Source: an uncultured virus (IMG/VR IMGVR_UViG_3300050509_000576)
Lineage: Duplodnaviria; Heunggongvirae; Uroviricota; Caudoviricetes
Strand: one strand, 5' to 3'
IMG/VR virus record: IMGVR_UViG_3300050509_000576
DNA length: 64,000 bases
Shown here: piece by piece, positions 4,955-58,190 of the stretch
Layout of the letters: each line of letters starts with the position of its first letter
Numbering within the stretch: the first letter of the stretch is position 1
Translations under genes and position numbers: made by a program
Notes under the pieces: model-generated
Seen by the model: only the letters and a program-made list of their open reading frames with translations
Told to the model about the DNA's origin: nothing
The model's database searches: none

Positions 4955-5530
4955 CGCTGCAGCCATGTGGTGCCGAGCCCTGCACGACGGCGTGCGCCCG
5001 GGCTAAGCACGAGGGGCCACGCCGGCAGGGCGACGCGAGGCGAGGCCACACCCAGCCGCGTCTCGTCGTGGCTCGCGTAGCGATGCCTGCGCAGCCGGGC
5101 CTTGCGACGGCACGGCCGGCCAAGTCGGGCCACGCCTGCGGCGCCTGGCCGCGCGCGGTCAAGCCAAGCACAGACTCGCGTTGCCTGCGGGGACGTGCCA
5201 AGTCTCGTCAAGTCTCGTCGCGCCACACCCAGCGATGCCAGCGATGCCAATCCTGGCCTGGTCGCGCGTTGCCTCGTCTCGTCAGGGCGTGCGATGCCAG
5301 CGATGTGCCGCCGAGCCTTGTCATCCCCCGCGTGTCCTGACGAGCCGAGCCTGGCCTGCAATGCGAATCCTCGCCGTGTCTCGTCGTGCCACGTCAGGAC
5401 GGGCGAGGCCTGCGCGGCCGCGCCATGTCGCGTCTCGCGATGCGTGTCTTGCGTGTCCTCGCGATGCCTGCGGCGCCGCGCCTTGCCGATCGCTCGAAGC
5501 GACGCCTAGACAGGCCTAGCTATGCCTGCT
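4955..5530 (-). ncRNA. Pentamer-repeat array segment 2 (about 10 units), putative VIPR-like guide RNAs
   Basis: GCC(T/A/G)GC(G/A) motif at 5021, 5085, 5134, 5183, 5237, 5296, 5354, 5408, 5466, 5524, separated by G(C/T)C-NN pentamers. Confidence 0.8.
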
Positions 5531-6302
5531 ACGGGCGGCGGCGTTCTTCAATCAAGGCCGCAATCAGGTCGAGCCGCCGGTAGACCGCTGGATTGCGGGT
5601 TTCGGCATCTGCGGCGATACGGTGCAGATGCGTAGGAAAGTACTCGTGGACCTCGATCAGGCCGAGTTGACGAAAATAGCGCGTATGCGACCGCGCTGTC
5701 CTCTCCTTAATACTACTCCGATGCGCGAGCTCACGATTGCTCAGCCATTCGTCAGTATGGCGTAACAGCGTCCAGAGGCGGGCCATGTGCCAACTGACTT
5801 CCGCATGTTCCTTGATGCGCGGGGTCGGCGGTGGAAGCTGTCCGTTGCGGGTAAGAGGCGTAGGCTCTGGGATATGCTCCAGGGCATCTAGGCGGGTGTG
5901 AATGGCCGCGATGGCCTCCTTGAGCGGGTCAATATGGACGGTGATTGTATGCACGACAGAGAGGAGGGCTTTTTCACACTGGATGAAATACTTTCGCGCA
6001 TCCCGTCCGCGTTCCGTGCGTTCGACCATACACAGCTCTTTGGCCATGTCCAGCGTCAGCGCATACATGTGCTCAGGTCTGCCTGGTTGGGTTTTACTAA
6101 AATTGTGGTAAAAAAGGTAGTCAACATCTTCAAGGAATTGATACTCGCGAATGCGATTGGTTATCCAATCATTAAAACGATGGGTAACCCGCAGCCAGGC
6201 ATGCAATTTCCGGGCATCGACCGTCTGCACAAAGGCATCCTGAATGGTCCGATATTGAATGTCAAGGACGAGTGGAGTTATGGTAAGATCTTGCTCAGAC
6301 AT
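5529..6302 (-). CDS. AntA/AntB-family antirepressor with C-terminal HTH-like domain
   Basis: VDARKLHAWL..F.DWI..RI..Y.F, Y.LTLDMAKELCMVERTERG..ARKYFI.CEK. Confidence 0.9.
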   Translation of the reverse strand: MSEQDLTITPLVLDIQYRTIQDAFVQTVDARKLHAWLRVTHRFNDWITNRIREYQFLEDVDYLFYHNFSKTQPGRPEHMYALTLDMAKELCMVERTERGRDARKYFIQCEKALLSVVHTITVHIDPLKEAIAAIHTRLDALEHIPEPTPLTRNGQLPPPTPRIKEHAEVSWHMARLWTLLRHTDEWLSNRELAHRSSIKERTARSHTRYFRQLGLIEVHEYFPTHLHRIAADAETRNPAVYRRLDLIAALIEERRRP

Positions 6303-6432: not shown

Positions 6433-7585
6433 GCCTTGCCAGCCGCCCATAGCCCAGCCTGGCCTACATATGCCTTGGCTCGTCCAGCCACGCCTGCGGC
6501 GCCGCGTCGGTCCGGGTCACGCGGTATCATGTCGCGCGACGACACGCGCAGCCTGCCTGGCCCGGCCTTGTCGGGCCACGCTCCGTCGTCCATGCGGCGT
6601 CTCGCCATGCCCGCGATGCCCGGCCGCGCCTAGCCTCCCGGCGCCACGCGCTGGCTAGCCACGCCCGCGCCGCTTGGCCCCGCGGAGCCGCGCCGTGCCT
6701 TGGCTCGCCCTGCGACGACCTGCGAAGCCTGCGGAGTTGCGCCGAGTCTTGCCGAGTGCTGTCGAGCCCCGACGAGTCGAGCGATGTCGAGCCCCGCCTG
6801 CGACGCCTCGTCTGGTCCCGCGAGACGACGCCAAGTCTTGCCACGCCTGCGGGGCCTCGCCTTGTCTTGCCACTCTACGCCATCCTGGCTCAGCCTCGCC
6901 TGCGATGCCCAGCCCGTCCTGGCCACGCGGGGACTAGCGCCGCCCGGCGGAGCCTCGCCTGCGGCGCCTCGCCATGTCCGGCCTAGACCTGACGCGTCGC
7001 GCCGTGCCTGCGGTGCCTCGTCTTGCGATGGGCTGGCTAGCCACGTCACGCCCTGCCTGCGATGCCCGGTCCCGCCCCGGCTCGCGACGTCTTGCCGCGC
7101 GAGGCCTGCAGTGCCTCGTCTAGCGATGGGTCAGCTAGCCCCGACCCGCCGTGCCTGCGACGCCAGTCCCTGTCATGTCGCGCCCTGTCTCGCGATACCC
7201 GGACCCGCCTTGCCGTGCCTGCGGCGCCACGGTCCGCCTTGTCCAGACCTGCGCTGCCCATCCCTGCCATGTCTGTCCTGCCTGCGTCGCGCTGTCTAGC
7301 CGGGTCCCGTCGCACCTCGCCACGGCTCGCGCTGCCTGCGGCGCCTCGCCAGGCCCGGTCTCGTCAAGTCATGTCGCGCCTGGTCTCGCCATGCCTGCGG
7401 CGCCAAGTCTCGTCTGGTCATGCCAGTCGCGGCCATCGAGGCCTCGCCTGCGATACCTTGTCTAGCCATGCCCGCGAAGTCGGGCCAATCCCCGTCGGGT
7501 CACGTCTTGTCACGCCTTGCCTGCGGCGCCTGGCCTCGTCATGCGATGTCCAACCACGCCACGTCTCGTCGTGCCTTGTCTGTAC
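6433..7585 (-). ncRNA. Pentamer-repeat array segment 1 (about 21 units), putative VIPR-like guide RNAs
   Basis: GCCTGCG (minus strand CGCAGGC) recurs mostly at 49/54/59/64/69-nt spacing (9+5n), e.g. 6957, 7006, 7055, 7104, 7153; the intervening pentamers have a constrained triplet and a variable dinucleotide. Confidence 0.85.
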
Positions 7586-7592
7586 TTCTTAC

Positions 7593-20256: not shown

Positions 20257-20649
20257 ATGCCCACGATTCCCTTGTTATCGACGACCCTGCTCGAAGCCAC
20301 GACCGGCCTCCTCACCTTTACGCTGGTCGATAGCGACGGCGCGGGCGTGCCCGTGTCCATGCTGACCACGGTGACGCTGACGTACTACGACGTGATCAGT
20401 GGCACGATCGTCAATGCCCGCAACGCGCAAAATGTGCTCAATGCCAATGATGTGAGTATCGTGACGGCAGGTTCGCCAGCCGTGACGACCATCGAATGGC
20501 AGATTCAGCCCGCCGATACGGTAATGGTGGATCCGGAGCTCGCGCTAGAGTACCGCGTGGCACAATTCCGCTGGACCTGGGACAGCGGCACGCGTCATGA
20601 TGCCTATCAGGTACAGTTTGGCGTGGAGAACCTCGCGTTTGTGGTCTGA
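20257..20649 (+). CDS. Putative tail/baseplate-associated protein
   Basis: FTL.DSDG..V, W...P.DT...Y..QF..TW pattern. Confidence 0.55.
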   Translation: MPTIPLLSTTLLEATTGLLTFTLVDSDGAGVPVSMLTTVTLTYYDVISGTIVNARNAQNVLNANDVSIVTAGSPAVTTIEWQIQPADTVMVDPELALEYRVAQFRWTWDSGTRHDAYQVQFGVENLAFVV

Positions 20650-20736
20650 GGGGAGGCCCACAAAAAAGAGGTGTCATTTGTGTGCGGCTATGCTAGTCTC
20701 ACGCTATCGACTGAGGAGGTAGCTCGGGATGCTAGT

Positions 20737-20858
20737 CTGTTCCCCGCGCGCGCGGGGATGAACCGTACACACTGACCTTTTTCATAGCACCTAGTATCTG
20801 TTCCCCGCGTGCGCGGGGATGAACCGAACCACCTCTGCACATCATACACGGTAGTCAC
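20737..20858 (+). CRISPR. Mini CRISPR array B, type I-E-like
   Basis: Repeats CTGTTCCCCGCGCGCGCGGGGATGAACCG (20737-20765) and CTGTTCCCCGCGTGCGCGGGGATGAACCG (20798-20826); 32-nt spacer; trailing putative spacer. Confidence 0.9.
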
Positions 20859-20888
20859 TGGTCGCCTGATGACCTTCAGGTAACACAT

Positions 20889-20947
20889 ACCGCCGCAGTT
20901 AAGCGAGAACCTCACCCCTCTCGCTGCTGTCGGCGGTTTTGTCTTTC
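20889..20947 (+). terminator. Hairpin/terminator downstream of mini-array B
   Basis: ACCGCCG...CGGCGGT stem followed by T-rich sequence. Confidence 0.55.
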
Positions 20948-20960
20948 TGGAGGCTTTCTC

Positions 20961-21203
20961 ATGGCAGACGCCCCCTATCTGGCTGAATCCTGGTCCGGTC
21001 TCATCCAATTCCGCTGTCCCGCCTGTGGCTACGATACGCTGCTCCAACCGCGCATTGATGCCCACATGGCGCAGTGTCCCCGCTACCAGGAGGCCCTCCA
21101 CGCGAGCACGCTGCGTGCAGGCGAACCGCCCGCGCCACCGCCCCCCGAGCCTGACCCGGATGAGGAGCCCGAACCGGCGCAGCCGACGCCTGCGGGGGCG
21201 TAA
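20961..21203 (+). CDS. Small zinc-finger protein
   Basis: CPAC..H...C; GGAGG RBS. Confidence 0.6.
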   Translation: MADAPYLAESWSGLIQFRCPACGYDTLLQPRIDAHMAQCPRYQEALHASTLRAGEPPAPPPPEPDPDEEPEPAQPTPAGA

Positions 21204-40324: not shown

Positions 40325-41136
40325 GCCTCAGCCTGCTCGTTACCGCCGTGCCGGCGCAGCCGGTGGTCGATCGCACGGCGCCGACCGCCCGCGGCCTCCT
40401 CGGCTGGTGGCGGGTCATGCCGGGCGTGAGTGGCGGCCCCTTCTGGTACAACCTCATGGGGCCGGCCAGGGGCACGCTCGTCAACATGAGCGCCGGCCTC
40501 GGCTGGGCCTCCACCACGCGGCCCGGGGGGCAGGGGGAGATGCGCTTGAATGGCACCAATACGCGTGTCACGTTTCCGGCGAATGCAGCCCTGGAACCGC
40601 CCGAATTTACCATCACGCTCTGGGTGAAGGTGGCGAGTGTGGGCGTCGATTACAGCGTCCTGTGGGGGCTCAATGCGGGGGGGGGCGCGGTGCGGGAAGT
40701 GATGCTCGACACGAGTGGTCGCCTGGCCGTCTATCTGCAGACGTCGGGCGGGCTGGTCAGCTTCGATCCGGCCGCGACCGCGCTGGCGCTCGGCGTGTGG
40801 ACGCACGTGGCGGTCTCCTATAGCCAGGCAGACGGCCTACGCGGCTTTGTCAACTGCACGCCCGATGCGACGACGGCCGGCACGGGCACCATGAGCGTGA
40901 CCAATTCGGCAGGCGCGTTCGGGATGAATCCCAACTCGCTCAATCGCTTTTTTGCCGGGGCCATGGATGATGTGCGGCTCTATAACCGGGTCGTGCCGCG
41001 CGCCGCCCTCTGTACGATGATGCGGGACGCCCAACGCGGCGAGCCGACGCTGCTGCGGCCGTCCGCGCTGACCCTGGGTGTCCTCGCGCCGTCAGGGGCT
41101 GGCGGCCGGTTCTTTCCCTTCTTCGGCACACCGTAA
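40294..41136 (+). CDS. LamG/concanavalin-A-like domain protein with signal peptide
   Basis: FTITLWVK, WTHVAVSY, F.G.MDDVRLYNR. Confidence 0.85.
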   Translation: MYALYLAITLSLSLLVTAVPAQPVVDRTAPTARGLLGWWRVMPGVSGGPFWYNLMGPARGTLVNMSAGLGWASTTRPGGQGEMRLNGTNTRVTFPANAALEPPEFTITLWVKVASVGVDYSVLWGLNAGGGAVREVMLDTSGRLAVYLQTSGGLVSFDPAATALALGVWTHVAVSYSQADGLRGFVNCTPDATTAGTGTMSVTNSAGAFGMNPNSLNRFFAGAMDDVRLYNRVVPRAALCTMMRDAQRGEPTLLRPSALTLGVLAPSGAGGRFFPFFGTP

Positions 41137-41149
41137 CAAAGGATACCCT

Positions 41150-44100
41150 ATGCTTTGGCTTACCCTTACCCTTCTCTTCAGCCTGGTATTACCCACCACT
41201 GTGCGTGCCGCAGAATACTATGCGTCAACAGGAGGAAGTGGTAGTACGTGTTCCATAGGCTCTCCATGTACCATTCCTGGTGGTATTGCCAAGCTGAGTG
41301 GTGGCGACACGCTCCACATTCGGGGTGGCGATTACAGTGACCTCGAAATTGGCAACGCTATCCCAAGCGGCTCGGCAGGTGCACGAACACTCATTACAGG
41401 ATACCAAGCTGAGACGGTCAACTTGCTTCGTAGTAAGATCACCATGGACGGCTCATCCAGTAATCAGTATATTACCTTTCAAAACTTCAACATTGACTGC
41501 CAAACGACGAATTGTTGGATTCGTCTCGTCAATCCCGTCAATAACATTCGCTTCAATCATGTCAACATCGGCAATAGCACGACCAGCAGTACCGGCGCCG
41601 GGATGATTACCGGCAATGCGGCCTATATTGAATATCTCCACATGAAGATTTACAACGCTGGTGCAGGGAACTGTTCCACGTATGCCAACCAAGGGTGTTA
41701 TGGCTTCTATGTCAATGGGCACCATCTCTTGTTCGATGACATTGAGGTGTATGATCATGGCGGCACGGGGCTGGTCATCTATCATTCTGGATTCACGGAT
41801 GTGCACGATAATGTCGTCAGGAACAGTAAGTTTTATAACAATGGCTATAACGATGCCCGTGGATACGCCGGCAATGGTTTTATCCTCACCTCTGGTGACA
41901 ATAACGTCGCCTATAACAATGTGTTGTGGGGGAATAACGGCACAGCTATTTCTGTCAACTATAGTTGCAACAACTGTGCCGTCTACAATAATACCGTCGT
42001 GAGCAATGGGACCACGGGGAATGGCTATGGCATTGAGGTGGATAATAGCTCCGGGGTGATCGTCCGGAACAACATCTCGTACAAGAATGGCAATGGGTCC
42101 GTCGGACAGCAACTGGTCGATTGGGCGGGCAATCTCACGCAGGACCATAACCTCCTGGCGACGAATCCCAACTTTAGCAACGAGGGGGGGCATGACTATA
42201 CGCTCCAGCCCGGGAGCCCGGCCATTGATCAGGGCGTCGCGGTCGCCATGGTCACCACGGACCAGGCGGGCACGGCTCGCCCCCAACCGCCGAGCGGCGC
42301 CTACGATATTGGCGCCTATGAGCGGGCGCAAGGCACGCCGCCCCCCGTCACCCTCACGGCGTATTATACCGATAAGAATGGGCTGGGGGGGCCGTGTAAC
42401 AACAGTAACAGTGGAGCCATTAACAGCCCTGTCTGTACGATTCAAGCAGGGATTGGCAAGCTGACGGCCGGGAGCACCCTCTATATTCGCGCCGGCACGT
42501 ACAATGAAACCATCAATCCAGCGGCCTATACCTTACCCACAGGCACCGCGGCGAACCCCATCGTGATTGCCGGGTATCAAAGTGAAGTGGTCACCATCAC
42601 CAATGGTATCATTCTCCAAGACAATGTGAACAGCTCCATTGTGGCGTACCTCATCTTTGACCATTTGACCGTTCGCAATAATGGTGACCCTGCTTTCCGC
42701 ATCGCTGGCAATTCCCACCACATTAAGATTCAGAATAGCGACCTCCAAACCTTTGCGACCTCCCAAACCCAGCAGAATGCTCCCAACGTCGTGCAGATCA
42801 CGCAGACAGCGTGGTACAACGAAGTCATCAACTGTGACGTGCATGATGCACCAGTCTCCTTTGACCTTGGTGTCACCCTTGGCCACTATGGATTCTATGT
42901 CGGTGGCCAGTACAATACCTATGATGGCAACCGCATCTACAATAATACGGGGTATGGCATCAACTTATTCCAGTCAGGGAGCTCACAAGTTAGCAACAAT
43001 ATCGTTCGGAACAATACCCTCTATGGCAACTGCTACGATGATGGCAATAGACGCAATAGTGCTAACGCCATTATTATTGGCTCTGGATCTGACAATCAGC
43101 TCTACAATAATGTGATTTATAACAACACGTGTACTGGGGCTGGTGCTGCCGTGTCCATAGGCTATACCAATGGTGGGACCAACAATCAGGTCTACAATAA
43201 CACCATTTACAATAACAATGGCCCCGGTATCCAGATTGATGCGACCGCCCCCGGCACCATCGTGAAAAATAATATCATCTATAACAACGGCGGTCCCCCC
43301 ATTCAAGATGACGCGAGTAACACCGACAAATCCCATAATCTCACGACGAACCCCCTGTTTCGGGATGCCGGCGCGGGGGACTTTCAACTCCAGCCACAGT
43401 CTGACGCCATTAATACCGGGACCCCGTTAGCCGCGGTGCCTACCGATAAGGCGGGGGTCACCCGTCCCCAACCGGCGAACGGCAACTATGATATTGGCGC
43501 CTATGAGTTTGTGCAGGGCGGACCGACACCTCCCTCCGGCAATCCCATCTATGTCCGGAAAACGGTGGGCAGTCCGAGCAATGACTGTAGCGCCGCGGAA
43601 AACCCCGCGACCGCCAAACAAACTATCGCGGATGCCTGCCAGTGCATGTCCATTCCCGGCAAAGTCATGCTGATTGAGGGCAACGGCAATGTGTACGCCG
43701 AAGAACTCGATACGCTCACCTGTCCCCTGACCGGGGGCAATGGGCCCTCCTATGATACGGCGACCCGACTGGAAGGCTACGGGACGACCCTCCCGATCCT
43801 ACAGTCCCCGGTCGCGACCAGCGGCATTACCCTCTATCTGCGCAGCACGCAGGATCACTACCTGCATTTTAAAAAGCTCGTGGTGGATGCGGCCTTCCGG
43901 GCCGGGAACGCGCTCATTGTGAATAGTACGGCGCACCATGTGCGCTTTGAGCAAGTCTCGTTCACCGGCAGCCCGTTTGAAAATGCGCTCCTGATTGGGG
44001 CCTCCAACATTGAGATGATTGACGTCTTTTCGAGCGGCGCGGGTACCAATGGTCTGGGGCTGGCGCAGGGCTTTACGAACTTTCTGTGCCACCGCTGCCA

Positions 44101-45865
44101 TTTGTTTAGCAATGGGGCCAAGGGCCTGGAGGTGCGCGACGCCGGGACGCGGACCAACATTACCGTGCGGGAAAGCGAAAGTCGCAACAATACCGGGGAC
44201 GGCGTGGACCTGGGGGCCAGTACGGGGACGCTCCTGCAAAATCTCCTCGTGCACTCCAACGGCGGCATGGGCATTCGGGTCCGGGGAGGGTCGCAGAGTA
44301 CCCGCGTCTATAACAGTACGGTCTATAGTAATACCGGCAACGGCATTCAGTGTGATGCGCCGGCGACCAGTACCGAGATTACCAATAATATTGCGTACAA
44401 TAATGCCGGGGGTGGGGCCAATAACATTGTCAATAATTGTACGGCGAACGTCTCCACGAATCTCACGACGAACCCCCTGTTTGTGAATCCCCCGACGGAT
44501 CTCAAGCTCCAGGACGGCTCGGAGGGGATTAACCGGGGGACGAATCTGCCCAGCGTCACCGTGGACTATGACGGCAACCCGCGCCCGCTCGGGCCGTACG
44601 ATATCGGGGCCTATGAGCGCGATCAGGGGACCCCGCAGCTGCCGCCCGGGCCCGGCATTCTGCGGGTCTCCACGACCAACCGGCGCTATATGGAAAATCC
44701 CGCGGGCGAGCTCGTCTATCTCACGGGCGCCTACTCCTGGAACTTTGCCTCCACGATGCCCGATGCCGAGGTGACGGCGTATCTCAATTATGTGGTCGCG
44801 CATAACCAGAATTACATCCGGGCCCCCAGTCAGGACTATAGTGGCACCGCCCAAAGTACGACCTACTTTACCACCCTCGCCGCCCGCGTCCAGCAGGCGG
44901 CGTCCCTGGGGATTTATGTGGGGGTGAACATCTTTCCCTTGACCGCGGCGCCCTTTAATAGCCAAAGCTTTAACGACGCGTATGCGCGCGCCCTCGTCCG
45001 TGCGGTGGGGAGTCAGCCCAATGTCCTCTACGAAATCGGCAATGAACTCAATACCGTCGCCTTGGATGGGGGGACCATCGGCGCGTTTGTCGCCAGTATG
45101 GTGACCGCGATCAACAATGAACAAGCGCTGCAAGGGTTTGCGCCCCGCCGTATGGTGGGCATCAGTGACTTCTTGGGCGAAGGGGTGATTGCGGTGTCGT
45201 CCCCGATCGTGACGTTTCTCCTCAACAGCAGCGCCGACTTTATTGGGCCGGGCTTTAGTGCCGTGGGGACCGATGCCTGTGATCCCCTGCCGGATTATGC
45301 CGGGCAAAAGGTCATTATCGTGGATTCTGACCATATTACCCCGTACCACTGCGACCATACCTGGGTCTGGAAAAGCCTCATGCTGGGGGCCAATCCGTCC
45401 ATCCTCGATGGCAATGCGTTTTACCCCGATAAGGTGGTGCCGGATAATCCGGACGATACCGTCGGGGCCGCCCTGACCTTTGATGCGCAAGAGCGCATGG
45501 GGGATACCCGAACCTACGCGCTCAAACTGCGGCTCGGCCAGGCCGTCCCGCATCCGGAGCTCGCCTCGACGGGCTATGCGCTGGCCTGGCCGAACAACGA
45601 ATACCTCGTGTATCAGCCGACGACCGGCGCCTTTACCGTGCAACTCCCCGCGGGGCCCTATACCGTCGAATGGTTTGATCCCACGGCCCGCACGACCACG
45701 ACCACGACCACGACGGTCGCCAGCGCGGGCGCGATCAGCTTTACGAGTCCGCTCGATCCCTCGCATGATGCCGTGCTGTTCCTCAAGACCGGGACGGCGC
45801 CGCCGCCGGAGCCGGACGTAACGGCCTTCCAGCAGGATGGTACGCAGGCTGAGAGCTTTTTTTAA
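41150..45865 (+). CDS. Large secreted protein: three parallel beta-helix modules plus a glycoside-hydrolase-like C-terminus
   Basis: Signal peptide; NN..YNN repeats, each module ending D..G..RP....YDIGAYE; NVLYEIGNE; Y.VEWFDP. Confidence 0.8.
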   Translation: MLWLTLTLLFSLVLPTTVRAAEYYASTGGSGSTCSIGSPCTIPGGIAKLSGGDTLHIRGGDYSDLEIGNAIPSGSAGARTLITGYQAETVNLLRSKITMDGSSSNQYITFQNFNIDCQTTNCWIRLVNPVNNIRFNHVNIGNSTTSSTGAGMITGNAAYIEYLHMKIYNAGAGNCSTYANQGCYGFYVNGHHLLFDDIEVYDHGGTGLVIYHSGFTDVHDNVVRNSKFYNNGYNDARGYAGNGFILTSGDNNVAYNNVLWGNNGTAISVNYSCNNCAVYNNTVVSNGTTGNGYGIEVDNSSGVIVRNNISYKNGNGSVGQQLVDWAGNLTQDHNLLATNPNFSNEGGHDYTLQPGSPAIDQGVAVAMVTTDQAGTARPQPPSGAYDIGAYERAQGTPPPVTLTAYYTDKNGLGGPCNNSNSGAINSPVCTIQAGIGKLTAGSTLYIRAGTYNETINPAAYTLPTGTAANPIVIAGYQSEVVTITNGIILQDNVNSSIVAYLIFDHLTVRNNGDPAFRIAGNSHHIKIQNSDLQTFATSQTQQNAPNVVQITQTAWYNEVINCDVHDAPVSFDLGVTLGHYGFYVGGQYNTYDGNRIYNNTGYGINLFQSGSSQVSNNIVRNNTLYGNCYDDGNRRNSANAIIIGSGSDNQLYNNVIYNNTCTGAGAAVSIGYTNGGTNNQVYNNTIYNNNGPGIQIDATAPGTIVKNNIIYNNGGPPIQDDASNTDKSHNLTTNPLFRDAGAGDFQLQPQSDAINTGTPLAAVPTDKAGVTRPQPANGNYDIGAYEFVQGGPTPPSGNPIYVRKTVGSPSNDCSAAENPATAKQTIADACQCMSIPGKVMLIEGNGNVYAEELDTLTCPLTGGNGPSYDTATRLEGYGTTLPILQSPVATSGITLYLRSTQDHYLHFKKLVVDAAFRAGNALIVNSTAHHVRFEQVSFTGSPFENALLIGASNIEMIDVFSSGAGTNGLGLAQGFTNFLCHRCHLFSNGAKGLEVRDAGTRTNITVRESESRNNTGDGVDLGASTGTLLQNLLVHSNGGMGIRVRGGSQSTRVYNSTVYSNTGNGIQCDAPATSTEITNNIAYNNAGGGANNIVNNCTANVSTNLTTNPLFVNPPTDLKLQDGSEGINRGTNLPSVTVDYDGNPRPLGPYDIGAYERDQGTPQLPPGPGILRVSTTNRRYMENPAGELVYLTGAYSWNFASTMPDAEVTAYLNYVVAHNQNYIRAPSQDYSGTAQSTTYFTTLAARVQQAASLGIYVGVNIFPLTAAPFNSQSFNDAYARALVRAVGSQPNVLYEIGNELNTVALDGGTIGAFVASMVTAINNEQALQGFAPRRMVGISDFLGEGVIAVSSPIVTFLLNSSADFIGPGFSAVGTDACDPLPDYAGQKVIIVDSDHITPYHCDHTWVWKSLMLGANPSILDGNAFYPDKVVPDNPDDTVGAALTFDAQERMGDTRTYALKLRLGQAVPHPELASTGYALAWPNNEYLVYQPTTGAFTVQLPAGPYTVEWFDPTARTTTTTTTTVASAGAISFTSPLDPSHDAVLFLKTGTAPPPEPDVTAFQQDGTQAESFF

Positions 45866-47438: not shown

Positions 47439-47870
47439 CTACAGGATGTTGAGGGTCGTGGCCCTGGTTGCAAGCAGCGTCTGTAAGCGCGTGAGCAGCT
47501 CAGGAAACCGGGACGGATCATCCAGGACCGCTGCAGCAAGCCAACTCGTGTCCCGATCGTATTTGAGTGCCCACAGGAGCGCTTCGCCTAAAGCGCGCTG
47601 CGTGTCGGGGGGCAGCGCGGCTTGCTCATCCTCGCGCAGGAGTAGTAAGTGGCCGGCCGCTTCGGCGGCCTCGGTGAGGGCATAGGAGGCTTTGCCTAGC
47701 GCTGCGGCAGGTGGCACGAGGCGCGGAGCCAGTGTGAGCAGCGGCGCGGCCAGGGCATACGCGAGTACGGTGCGCCGACTCGGGCGCAAACATCCCTCTT
47801 CCATACGATCCTCTTCCATACGATTCCTTTGCCTTGACGTGGCAGGAGTGCCGTGGCAGAATAGCACCAT
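47439..47870 (-). CDS. Hypothetical protein (start uncertain; Tat-like RR motif)
   Basis: SRRTVL followed by a hydrophobic stretch. Confidence 0.45.
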   Translation of the reverse strand: MVLFCHGTPATSRQRNRMEEDRMEEGCLRPSRRTVLAYALAAPLLTLAPRLVPPAAALGKASYALTEAAEAAGHLLLLREDEQAALPPDTQRALGEALLWALKYDRDTSWLAAAVLDDPSRFPELLTRLQTLLATRATTLNIL

Positions 47871-47908
47871 ATCGTTAGGCTAGTATAGCGCTTTTCTGGA
47901 GCATGCTC

Positions 47909-48124
47909 ATGAAAAAAGTGTCGGTCTATCTCGATGACGACCTCTGGCACTGCCTGCGGCTGGGCTGTGTGCAGCGGCAGATCTCGGCCAGTGCGCAGGT
48001 GAGCCAACTGGTAAGCGACCTGCTCGCCCGGTGGCAGCACGAGCGGCCGGACCTCCCTCCCTTTGGGACGGCCGAACTACCGACCCCCATACCTGACACG
48101 AGAAAGGACCGACGCCATGCCTGA
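47909..48124 (+). CDS. Ribbon-helix-helix-like regulator
   Basis: MKKVSVYLDDDLW..LR....S.S..V..L. Confidence 0.7.
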   Translation: MKKVSVYLDDDLWHCLRLGCVQRQISASAQVSQLVSDLLARWQHERPDLPPFGTAELPTPIPDTRKDRRHA

Positions 48125-57258: not shown

Positions 57259-58190
57259 ACTAAGCCATCCTCCTTGAGGAGTTGCTGCGTGACGGCGAGG
57301 TTGCGGAGCCCTTTGGCGCTGACCTTGCTGCCGGTGGGGCCGGGCGTGCGGCGGCCCTGCTCATGCCACTGCTGCGCGGCGGCCCGGTAGTCGTCAAAAT
57401 GTTCGGGCTTGAACGGCGTCGAGGCGTTGAAATTGATGGCCTGGTTCGGCTGCTCGACCACCTTGACGGCCTGCCACCAGTCAATCACCAGCGTGCACTC
57501 CGCGACGGTCGCCTCGTGGTCGAGGAGCGCGGCAATCAGTGTGGGGTTTTTGTGGTCGCGCTTGGTGACCTTGTTGAGATACGCGAGGACCTCGTGTGCC
57601 TCCACCTGGGCTTGGCGATTAAAACTGGCAGCAAAGCCATTATCCCCACCCATACCTCCAGAGGGGTAAGGGGTGTGTGTACTCTCAAGATTAACTTCTT
57701 TCAATTCTTCTTCTTTAAGTCCTTTATAACTAGTGACGGTTTTGCCGACTTCGGTTTTGCCGACTTCGGTTTTGCCGACTTCGGTTTTGCCGACTTCGGT
57801 TAGACCGAGATCGGCAAACCCGTTTTCGGTGTCTTCACCGGGAAACGGCGGGGGTATTTCCTGGTCAAAGGCGGTGTCGTCCTGGGCCAGCTCGGGGGTT
57901 TCATAGATTTTCGTATCCCAGCCTTCCATACGTCCTTGCGTATTGCGCAGTCGTTTGCGACGGATATAGCCCGCGTCTTCGAGTTCTTTCAAGGCCCCAG
58001 CAATGGCCTCTCGGCCCTCTTTAGGAGACTCCTTGGCGAGTTGCTTGATATAGACCCGCCAATTATTGGGCTTCGACATCAGATAGGTGTGGAGCCCCTT
58101 AGCCCGAAAGCTCAGCCGAGCGTCGTTCAATGCGGTAATTTCTAATTGCACATAGGGGGCCGTTTTCTTCGAGGTCCGTGCGACGCTCAT
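57255..58190 (-). CDS. Phage replication initiator (HTH)
   Basis: D.RLS..AKGL..YL.SKP..W, G.EA...ALKELE.AGYI.R; internal iterons. Confidence 0.85.
   Translation of the reverse strand: MSVARTSKKTAPYVQLEITALNDARLSFRAKGLHTYLMSKPNNWRVYIKQLAKESPKEGREAIAGALKELEDAGYIRRKRLRNTQGRMEGWDTKIYETPELAQDDTAFDQEIPPPFPGEDTENGFADLGLTEVGKTEVGKTEVGKTEVGKTVTSYKGLKEEELKEVNLESTHTPYPSGGMGGDNGFAASFNRQAQVEAHEVLAYLNKVTKRDHKNPTLIAALLDHEATVAECTLVIDWWQAVKVVEQPNQAINFNASTPFKPEHFDDYRAAAQQWHEQGRRTPGPTGSKVSAKGLRNLAVTQQLLKEDGLV
57737..57826. repeat. Iteron-like 15-bp repeats (putative origin)
   Basis: Four perfect CGGTTTTGCCGACTT plus two degenerate copies, next to an AT-rich tract. Confidence 0.75.

Follow-up and report, generated by a model that had tools for sequence, protein, structure and literature searches.

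INTRODUCTION

Mini-CRISPR arrays borne by viruses have reportedly been surveyed in phages by Faure et al. in 2019. Such arrays take part in conflicts between viruses, as described for SPV1/SPV2 (PMC6858448), reviewed in PMC11656645, and modelled in PMC7099407. According to these three papers, the known mini-arrays are cas-less, hold one or two spacers, are directed at related viruses but not at their carrier, turn over their spacers at a fixed position, and have targets that adjoin the array. Racrs are searched for as solitary repeat units (SRUs), and the accessible part of PMC10651486 states that SRUFinder excludes clustered repeats. For Cracr arrays, the available text (bioRxiv 10.1101/2024.10.29.618823) requires at least 9 PAM-proximal bases that match the CreR/CreA spacer or the host cas promoter.

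Here, we analyzed a window of 64,000 nucleotides from an uncultured virus (IMG/VR record IMGVR_UViG_3300050509_000576; one strand, 5' to 3'); the window denotes this whole stretch. A preliminary description had reported that, in addition to array A, a second mini-CRISPR array (array B) is present at 20650..20947. It was read as an independent acquisition that is used against a related phage and targets a homolog of the phage's own ribbon-helix-helix (RHH) regulator gene, while the phage's own copy is immune. We confirm the observation; this interpretation of the spacer is partly supported and probably right.

RESULTS

Genomic setting

The window belongs to a tailed phage. Its + strand carries genes for head morphogenesis, scaffold, major head, head-tail connectors, major tail, tape measure, and tail fibre J, as assigned with PHROGs, which likewise detected antirepressors and a replication initiator. 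Array B is intergenic and lies within the structural module, with head and tail genes around it. No cas gene was matched in the window among the ORFs chosen for scanning (80 with PHROGs and 55 with PADLOC, out of 401 listed for the 64 kb), and the genome may extend further. At least half of the words of the region were present in seven sequencing runs, of which four are flagged as possible sources and three are rhizosphere metagenomes from one year; no RNA dataset was listed among the runs with the region. A GTDB search for the host with ORF 20257..20649 found nothing. One of the sibling records carries a provirus classification, which, together with the antirepressor genes, suggests a temperate life.

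Three further features of the window were recorded. Long patches of degenerate short repeats (5039-5490 and 6470-7590) lie on either side of an antirepressor gene (5529-6302), perfect 15-bp tandem repeats of iteron-like appearance lie within the replication initiator gene (57737-57800), and the tail fibre genes are followed by the gene for a protein of 1595 aa in which right-handed beta-helix regions recur (41078-45865). Among the siblings, record L150 (11016-19958) continues into genes for conjugation (Trb/VirB) and for a relaxase of MobQ-like type, which suggests that this sibling is inserted in or beside a conjugative element.

Anatomy and type of array B

Array B consists of two 29-nt repeats on the + strand (20737-20765 and 20798-20826) that enclose a single 32-nt spacer, spacer B (20766-20797). 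The repeats are one mismatch apart, follow each other with a 61-bp period, and each folds into a hairpin with a 7-bp stem and a 4-nt loop. A degenerate motif of the repeat had five matches in the window, compared to 0.04 expected from shuffles. The second mini-CRISPR of the preliminary description is thus real, and so is the claimed difference between its repeat and that of array A, as 4-6 of the 29 positions differ. A third repeat with a second spacer was considered and rejected: the sites 61 bp to either side mismatch at 19 and 22 of the 29 positions. The stretch that follows repeat 2 (20827-20848, + strand) is a trailer, not a second spacer; it comprises five novel bases and then leader sequence common to the siblings. 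A -10-like box that siblings L009 and L013 have at this position is lost in the window.

Two arrays were examined among the best plasmid matches in a blastn search. Both have repeats with 1-2 mismatches to those of array B and a 61-bp period, and each is preceded on its own strand by a complete cas3-casA-casB-cas7e-cas5e-cas6e-cas1e-cas2e operon. Because these arrays behind complete I-E operons match in repeats, orientation, and period, we assign array B to type I-E and read it on the + strand. Judged by its sequence, array B is a type I-E array, with a 29-nt hairpin repeat, a 61-bp period, and a repeat like those beside casA-cas2e. The I-E arrays at 1-2 mismatches from its repeats belong to other bacteria. 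With one spacer between two repeats in a virus genome in which cas was not detected among the ORFs scanned, array B is a cas-less virus-borne mini-array, a class defined by 1-2 spacers.

In sequencing run X5, the summed contig depth over window positions 20730-20763 was 136-243 on repeat 1 compared to 17 on the leader. A similar repeat is therefore present on other contigs of this run, possibly in host arrays.

A polymorphic slot before a conserved leader RNA

Array B sits in a slot whose left anchor is an ORF of 130 aa (20257-20649, + strand) without a family match that is conserved in the siblings. This ORF is followed by a putative promoter-like motif (20662-20699, + strand) composed of an A-run, a -35-like box at 20671, and an extended -10-like box at 20691; a scan of the region for the sigma-70 consensus promoter gave no match. 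Downstream of the trailer is a conserved leader RNA (20849-20945, + strand) with a 5' stem-bulge-stem domain, the 3' strand of which overlaps the 5' arm of an intrinsic terminator (arms from 20889 and 20931). The terminator was confirmed (fold z = -5.75). The leader RNA of ~100 nt occurs once per genome and in all seven slot alleles, with a nearly invariant 5' domain, and Rfam held no family for this region. Its proposed fold has weak covariation support, as 23 of 500 shuffles reach the same level and one of the 15 proposed pairs never pairs. The next ORF (80 aa, 20961-21203, + strand) has a weak zinc-ribbon match below the cut-off and is followed by the major tail protein genes. In this position, before a zinc-ribbon-like ORF and tail genes, the leader RNA looks like an attenuator.

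The conserved element downstream of array B was found in 17 records with seven slot alleles (18 matches in total, of which that in L040 was left out as a chance match). The window and L010 carry two different I-E arrays. L009 has a three-spacer array with repeats of a 37-nt type and L033 a degenerate one-spacer unit of the same type, L013 and L036 have half repeats only, and L008 has no repeat; a further allele was seen in run X7. The 37-nt repeat had no plasmid match and may be I-D-like with a GTT PAM. Different sibling alleles co-occur within single sequencing runs. With one sibling lacking a repeat in the slot and two having a half repeat only, the array is dispensable.

The preliminary description had credited array B with a leader-like region and a downstream terminator-like hairpin. 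Both are present, but neither is specific to the array: the promoter-like motif is also found in L010 and in the array-free L008, and L008 has the terminator as well. Because an array-free sibling has both, we regard them as the phage's own conserved leader, which hosts the array. The proposed independent acquisition of array B fits the data, because its repeat differs from that of array A and its slot is separate and polymorphic.

Half repeats of the 37-nt type, which retain the hairpin and the final 8 bases, were also seen immediately ahead of gene starts or of sequence resembling genes at L059:3540, L063:11711, L076:6236, and L152:10489. In six of the seven slot alleles, a CRISPR repeat or remnant of one of two types lies upstream of the terminator-overlapping leader RNA. 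It is conceivable, and in our estimation a long shot, that cleavage by host Cas6 and loading of Cascade could set the state of the terminator. Tail-gene expression would then be adjusted to whichever CRISPR system the current host has, and the phage would at the same time direct guides against the gene starts of siblings.

Spacer B and the RHH gene of the carrier

On the reverse strand, spacer B reads as 12 nt of upstream sequence followed by the codons for MKKVSV and two bases of a Tyr codon. As the preliminary description had noted, this peptide is identical to the N-terminus of ORF 47909 (47909-48124, + strand, 71 aa), which lies upstream of a Bro-N antirepressor gene, and the DNA identity is 14/20; both values were reproduced. 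A match of at least 6 aa anywhere in the six frames of the window arose in 240 of 5000 shuffles, and the 6-aa match alone is therefore weak. A 6-aa match to the N-terminus of an M-started ORF arose in none of 2000 shuffles. Two short boxes upstream of the RHH gene (47861-47868 and 47880-47886, + strand) cover the PAM-distal 14 nt of spacer B. Full coverage by two boxes was obtained in one of 1592 80-nt windows, namely that over the RHH upstream region. This test and the N-terminal shuffle test were both chosen after the match had been seen and are post hoc. The boxes are possibly shared operator sequence or half-sites.

ORF 47909 has five close relatives (67-84% identity). One of these, P0004 (84-86%), starts with MKKVSVYL; in the remaining four, the sixth residue is Leu. 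In the AF2 model of ORF 47909, helices span residues 10-22 and 27-45, the core has pLDDT >90, and the strand is unassigned in this monomer model. The best Foldseek rows were the RHH proteins CopASO, ParG, CopG, and Arc (probability 0.97-1.0, but E-values of 0.1 or higher). The relatives match RHH_5 at 8e-6, and the Atlas neighbours are RHH proteins. Going by these predictions of a strand and two helices, ORF 47909 is an RHH-like protein, for which we infer a regulator role. It resembles the RHH family (CopG/Arc/ParG fold) in its predicted strand-helix-helix core and differs from it in having no Pfam match of its own and in the weak Foldseek E-values.

Seed and PAM requirements, as given in the available part of PMC5904413, were applied to the pairing of spacer B. 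At the carrier's own RHH locus, 18 of the 32 positions are mismatched, including positions 3, 7, 8, and 9, and the PAM is AGA. No site in the window pairs with spacer B beyond position 8, and the one site that reaches it has a TGC PAM. Self-targeting by spacer B was thus rejected, and, on this predicted pairing, the own RHH gene is not a plausible target. The claimed immunity of the own copy therefore holds at the sequence level, with seed positions 3, 7, and 8 broken.

Search for the protospacer of spacer B

The PAM of the presumed target is predicted to be AAG, from the Tyr7-Leu8 codons; with CTN as the leucine codon, it would equally be AGG. The preliminary description had proposed searching viral metagenomes for the protospacer and its PAM; in IMG/VR and JGI this search returned only copies of the same array. 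The exact 32-mer and the exact 20-mer of spacer B had two matches each in IMG/VR, both in the array of the same phage. A codon-degenerate pattern had 67 matches there, two of which are the array, one of which lies at an edge and was unscorable, and 65 of which are non-array. The best other degenerate match has 7/32 mismatches and an AGA PAM and lies on a contig with 43% GC. These 65 matches indicate that MKKVxVY starts are common in unrelated viral genes. The exact 21-mer was absent from JGI metagenomes outside the array context and from GTDB genomes, and blastn against INPHARED and PLSDB gave only chance matches (E >=3).

In 28 sibling records, the 20-mer with up to three mismatches was found in the array only. 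This absence is weak evidence, because the records are fragments (5-70% complete) and an RHH match is present in only 2/28. None of the RHH loci compared (1 viral record and 16 metagenome loci) fits spacer B, and there was no loose end at spacer B among the loose ends listed for four sequencing runs. As no protospacer was found in these collections, the target of spacer B and its AAG PAM are predictions.

Spacers of the family and their sibling targets

Array A (1544-1635, + strand) has two I-E-like repeats and a 34-nt spacer (1573-1606) with a protospacer in sibling L072. This target has 2/34 mismatches (positions 18 and 21) and an ATG PAM, and lies directly after the start codon. The own copy at 1691 has nine mismatches to the same spacer. 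The second matched spacer of the family is spacer 2 of L009, which occupies the slot of array B. It differs from L013-L015 at 3/33 positions, all PAM-distal, and covers the RBS and start of the next gene there; the own copy of L009, like that of the window, has at least nine mismatches and a different flank. Of nine internal family spacers, these two have near-perfect, PAM-flanked sibling targets and diverged carrier copies, and seven have no match. Most were compared with 89 redundant loci (892 kb); for the L033 spacer and the first spacer of L009, the comparison covered 68 loci only. Both matched spacers are aimed at gene starts, and the presumed target of spacer B likewise lies at a gene start. 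The proposed use of the array against relatives is thus supported indirectly, by two of nine family spacers (including that of array A) that fit siblings, but not by a protospacer of spacer B itself.

The array A spacer also pairs with the phage's own next gene (1688-1724), which follows the array at a distance of 55 nt. With every sixth base disregarded, this pairing extends to position 14, next to an ATG PAM. Judging from this pairing, Cascade with the array A guide might bind and damp this gene without cutting it. A solitary I-E-like repeat (1940-1968, + strand) precedes the head-morphogenesis gene of the window. In L071 (879-1345), array and solitary repeat trade places: the site of array A holds a solo I-E repeat, and an I-E array with two spacers occupies the site of the window's solitary repeat; the L071 spacers had no match in the sibling loci compared.

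DISCUSSION

Mechanism and alternatives

The anatomy, I-E type, and orientation of array B are established, as are the likeness of its spacer to the start of an RHH gene and the finding that the carrier's own gene is not its target. Taken as a whole mechanism, we consider it likely that the phage uses array B, a cas-less mini-array of type I-E, against a related phage or a similar mobile element. In this mechanism, the leader promoter would transcribe the repeat-spacer-repeat unit together with the leader RNA up to the terminator, and this short terminated RNA would be made even when the tail genes are off. Host Cas6e would cut both hairpins, and host Cascade would load the 32-nt guide. Cascade would then bind the 5' region of the sibling's RHH gene next to an AAG or AGG PAM formed by the Tyr7-Leu8 codons; by eye, the presumed target has a hexamer of -10-like appearance, 7 nt ahead of its ATG. 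Cas3 would destroy the incoming sibling genome. The carrier would escape because its own gene uses synonymous codons, is preceded by a different sequence, and has an AGA PAM, and in temperate life the guide could act as superinfection exclusion. This mechanism is favoured by the likeness of the repeats to arrays behind complete I-E operons, the lack of a cas match among the scanned ORFs, the N-terminal and box statistics, the MKKVSVYL start of P0004, the sibling targets of array A and of L009 spacer 2, the co-occurrence of sibling alleles within single runs, and the provirus classification of a sibling; the pattern is that of PMC6858448, PMC11656645, and PMC7099407. Counting against it are the missing protospacer in the collections searched, the seven family spencers with no match, the dispensability of the array, the frequency of 6-aa matches in shuffles, the post hoc choice of both statistics, and the sigma-70 scan that gave no promoter.

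It is unlikely, in our assessment, that array B is a non-functional relic, that is, a host-array fragment brought in by recombination at a phage-like spacer that once came from a sibling RHH gene and is now inert. Half and degenerate repeats at several gene starts of siblings run straight into phage sequence, only the five novel bases separate repeat 2 from the shared leader sequence, and siblings carry RecT genes; recombination has been proposed as the origin of phage mini-arrays in the available parts of PMC6858448 and PMC7099407. However, both repeats are intact with full hairpins, the spacer has canonical length, and the array has a conserved promoter-like motif on one side and a terminator on the other; an origin by recombination is, moreover, compatible with function. 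We judge it rather improbable that the array yields an anti-CRISPR RNA, with its repeats as Racr-like decoys or its guide silencing a host promoter in a Cracr-like manner, for example that of a leaderless host RHH gene. The family does have solitary and half repeats of two CRISPR types, spacer B by eye spans a -10-like box and the start codon, and both I-E Racrs (PMC10651486) and I-E Cracr arrays (bioRxiv 10.1101/2024.10.29.618823) are described in the accessible text of these sources. Against this, array B has the canonical form, with two repeats and a spacer of 32 nt, compared to 21-24 nt in the I-E Cracrs of that text, its closest peptide match is a phage gene and not a cas gene, GTDB genomes lack an exact 21-nt match, and the two matched family spacers fit sibling phages almost perfectly.

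There is a small chance that array B is real and the RHH likeness coincidental, with the spacer aimed at something unrelated. The frequency of 6-aa matches in shuffles, the many unrelated viral genes with MKKVxVY starts, and the missing target in the collections searched speak for coincidence. The match is, however, at a real gene start, which no shuffle reproduced, the non-coding part of the spacer points to the same gene, and the two family spacers with real targets show the same gene-start pattern. We find it very hard to credit that the array serves self-regulation, with Cascade guided to the RHH gene of the carrier itself: the peptide-level identity and the DNA identity over the coding part invite this idea, but the AGA PAM, the seed mismatches, and the lack of any extended pairing in the window oppose it.

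Comparison with known systems

The solitary repeat of the window and the half repeats of the siblings resemble the SRUs described in the available part of PMC10651486. Array B differs from the Racrs of that text in having two full repeats 61 bp apart and a full spacer; it was rejected as a Racr or solitary repeat unit, which is a single repeat without a neighbouring repeat. Like the Cracr arrays and host CreR/CreA in the accessible text of the preprint (bioRxiv 10.1101/2024.10.29.618823), which include I-E examples, array B is phage-borne and cas-less, and its guide overlaps promoter-like sequence. It differs from them in its canonical repeats and 32-nt spacer and in that no cas-promoter target was identified.

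Array B is most fully compared with the mini-arrays of the SPV1/SPV2 type. It is like them in its single spacer, in that no cas gene was detected, and in its intergenic site and presumably host-type repeat. The homologous locus of the carrier is diverged here too, siblings have different spacers at one and the same site, and two spacers of the family target genes that adjoin the array in relatives. In contrast, the homolog of spacer B lies 27 kb from the array and its protospacer was not found, siblings differ in which of two CRISPR types their repeats in the slot belong to, and the array precedes a conserved, terminator-overlapping leader RNA. The principle that phages use host Cas proteins against relatives is already known. 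What this locus adds is a bacterial phage family whose mini-arrays can be compared across siblings, with one slot, seven alleles, two CRISPR repeat types, and two sibling-targeted spacers, and which is suited to studying how such arrays are acquired, replace one another, and decay in phages.
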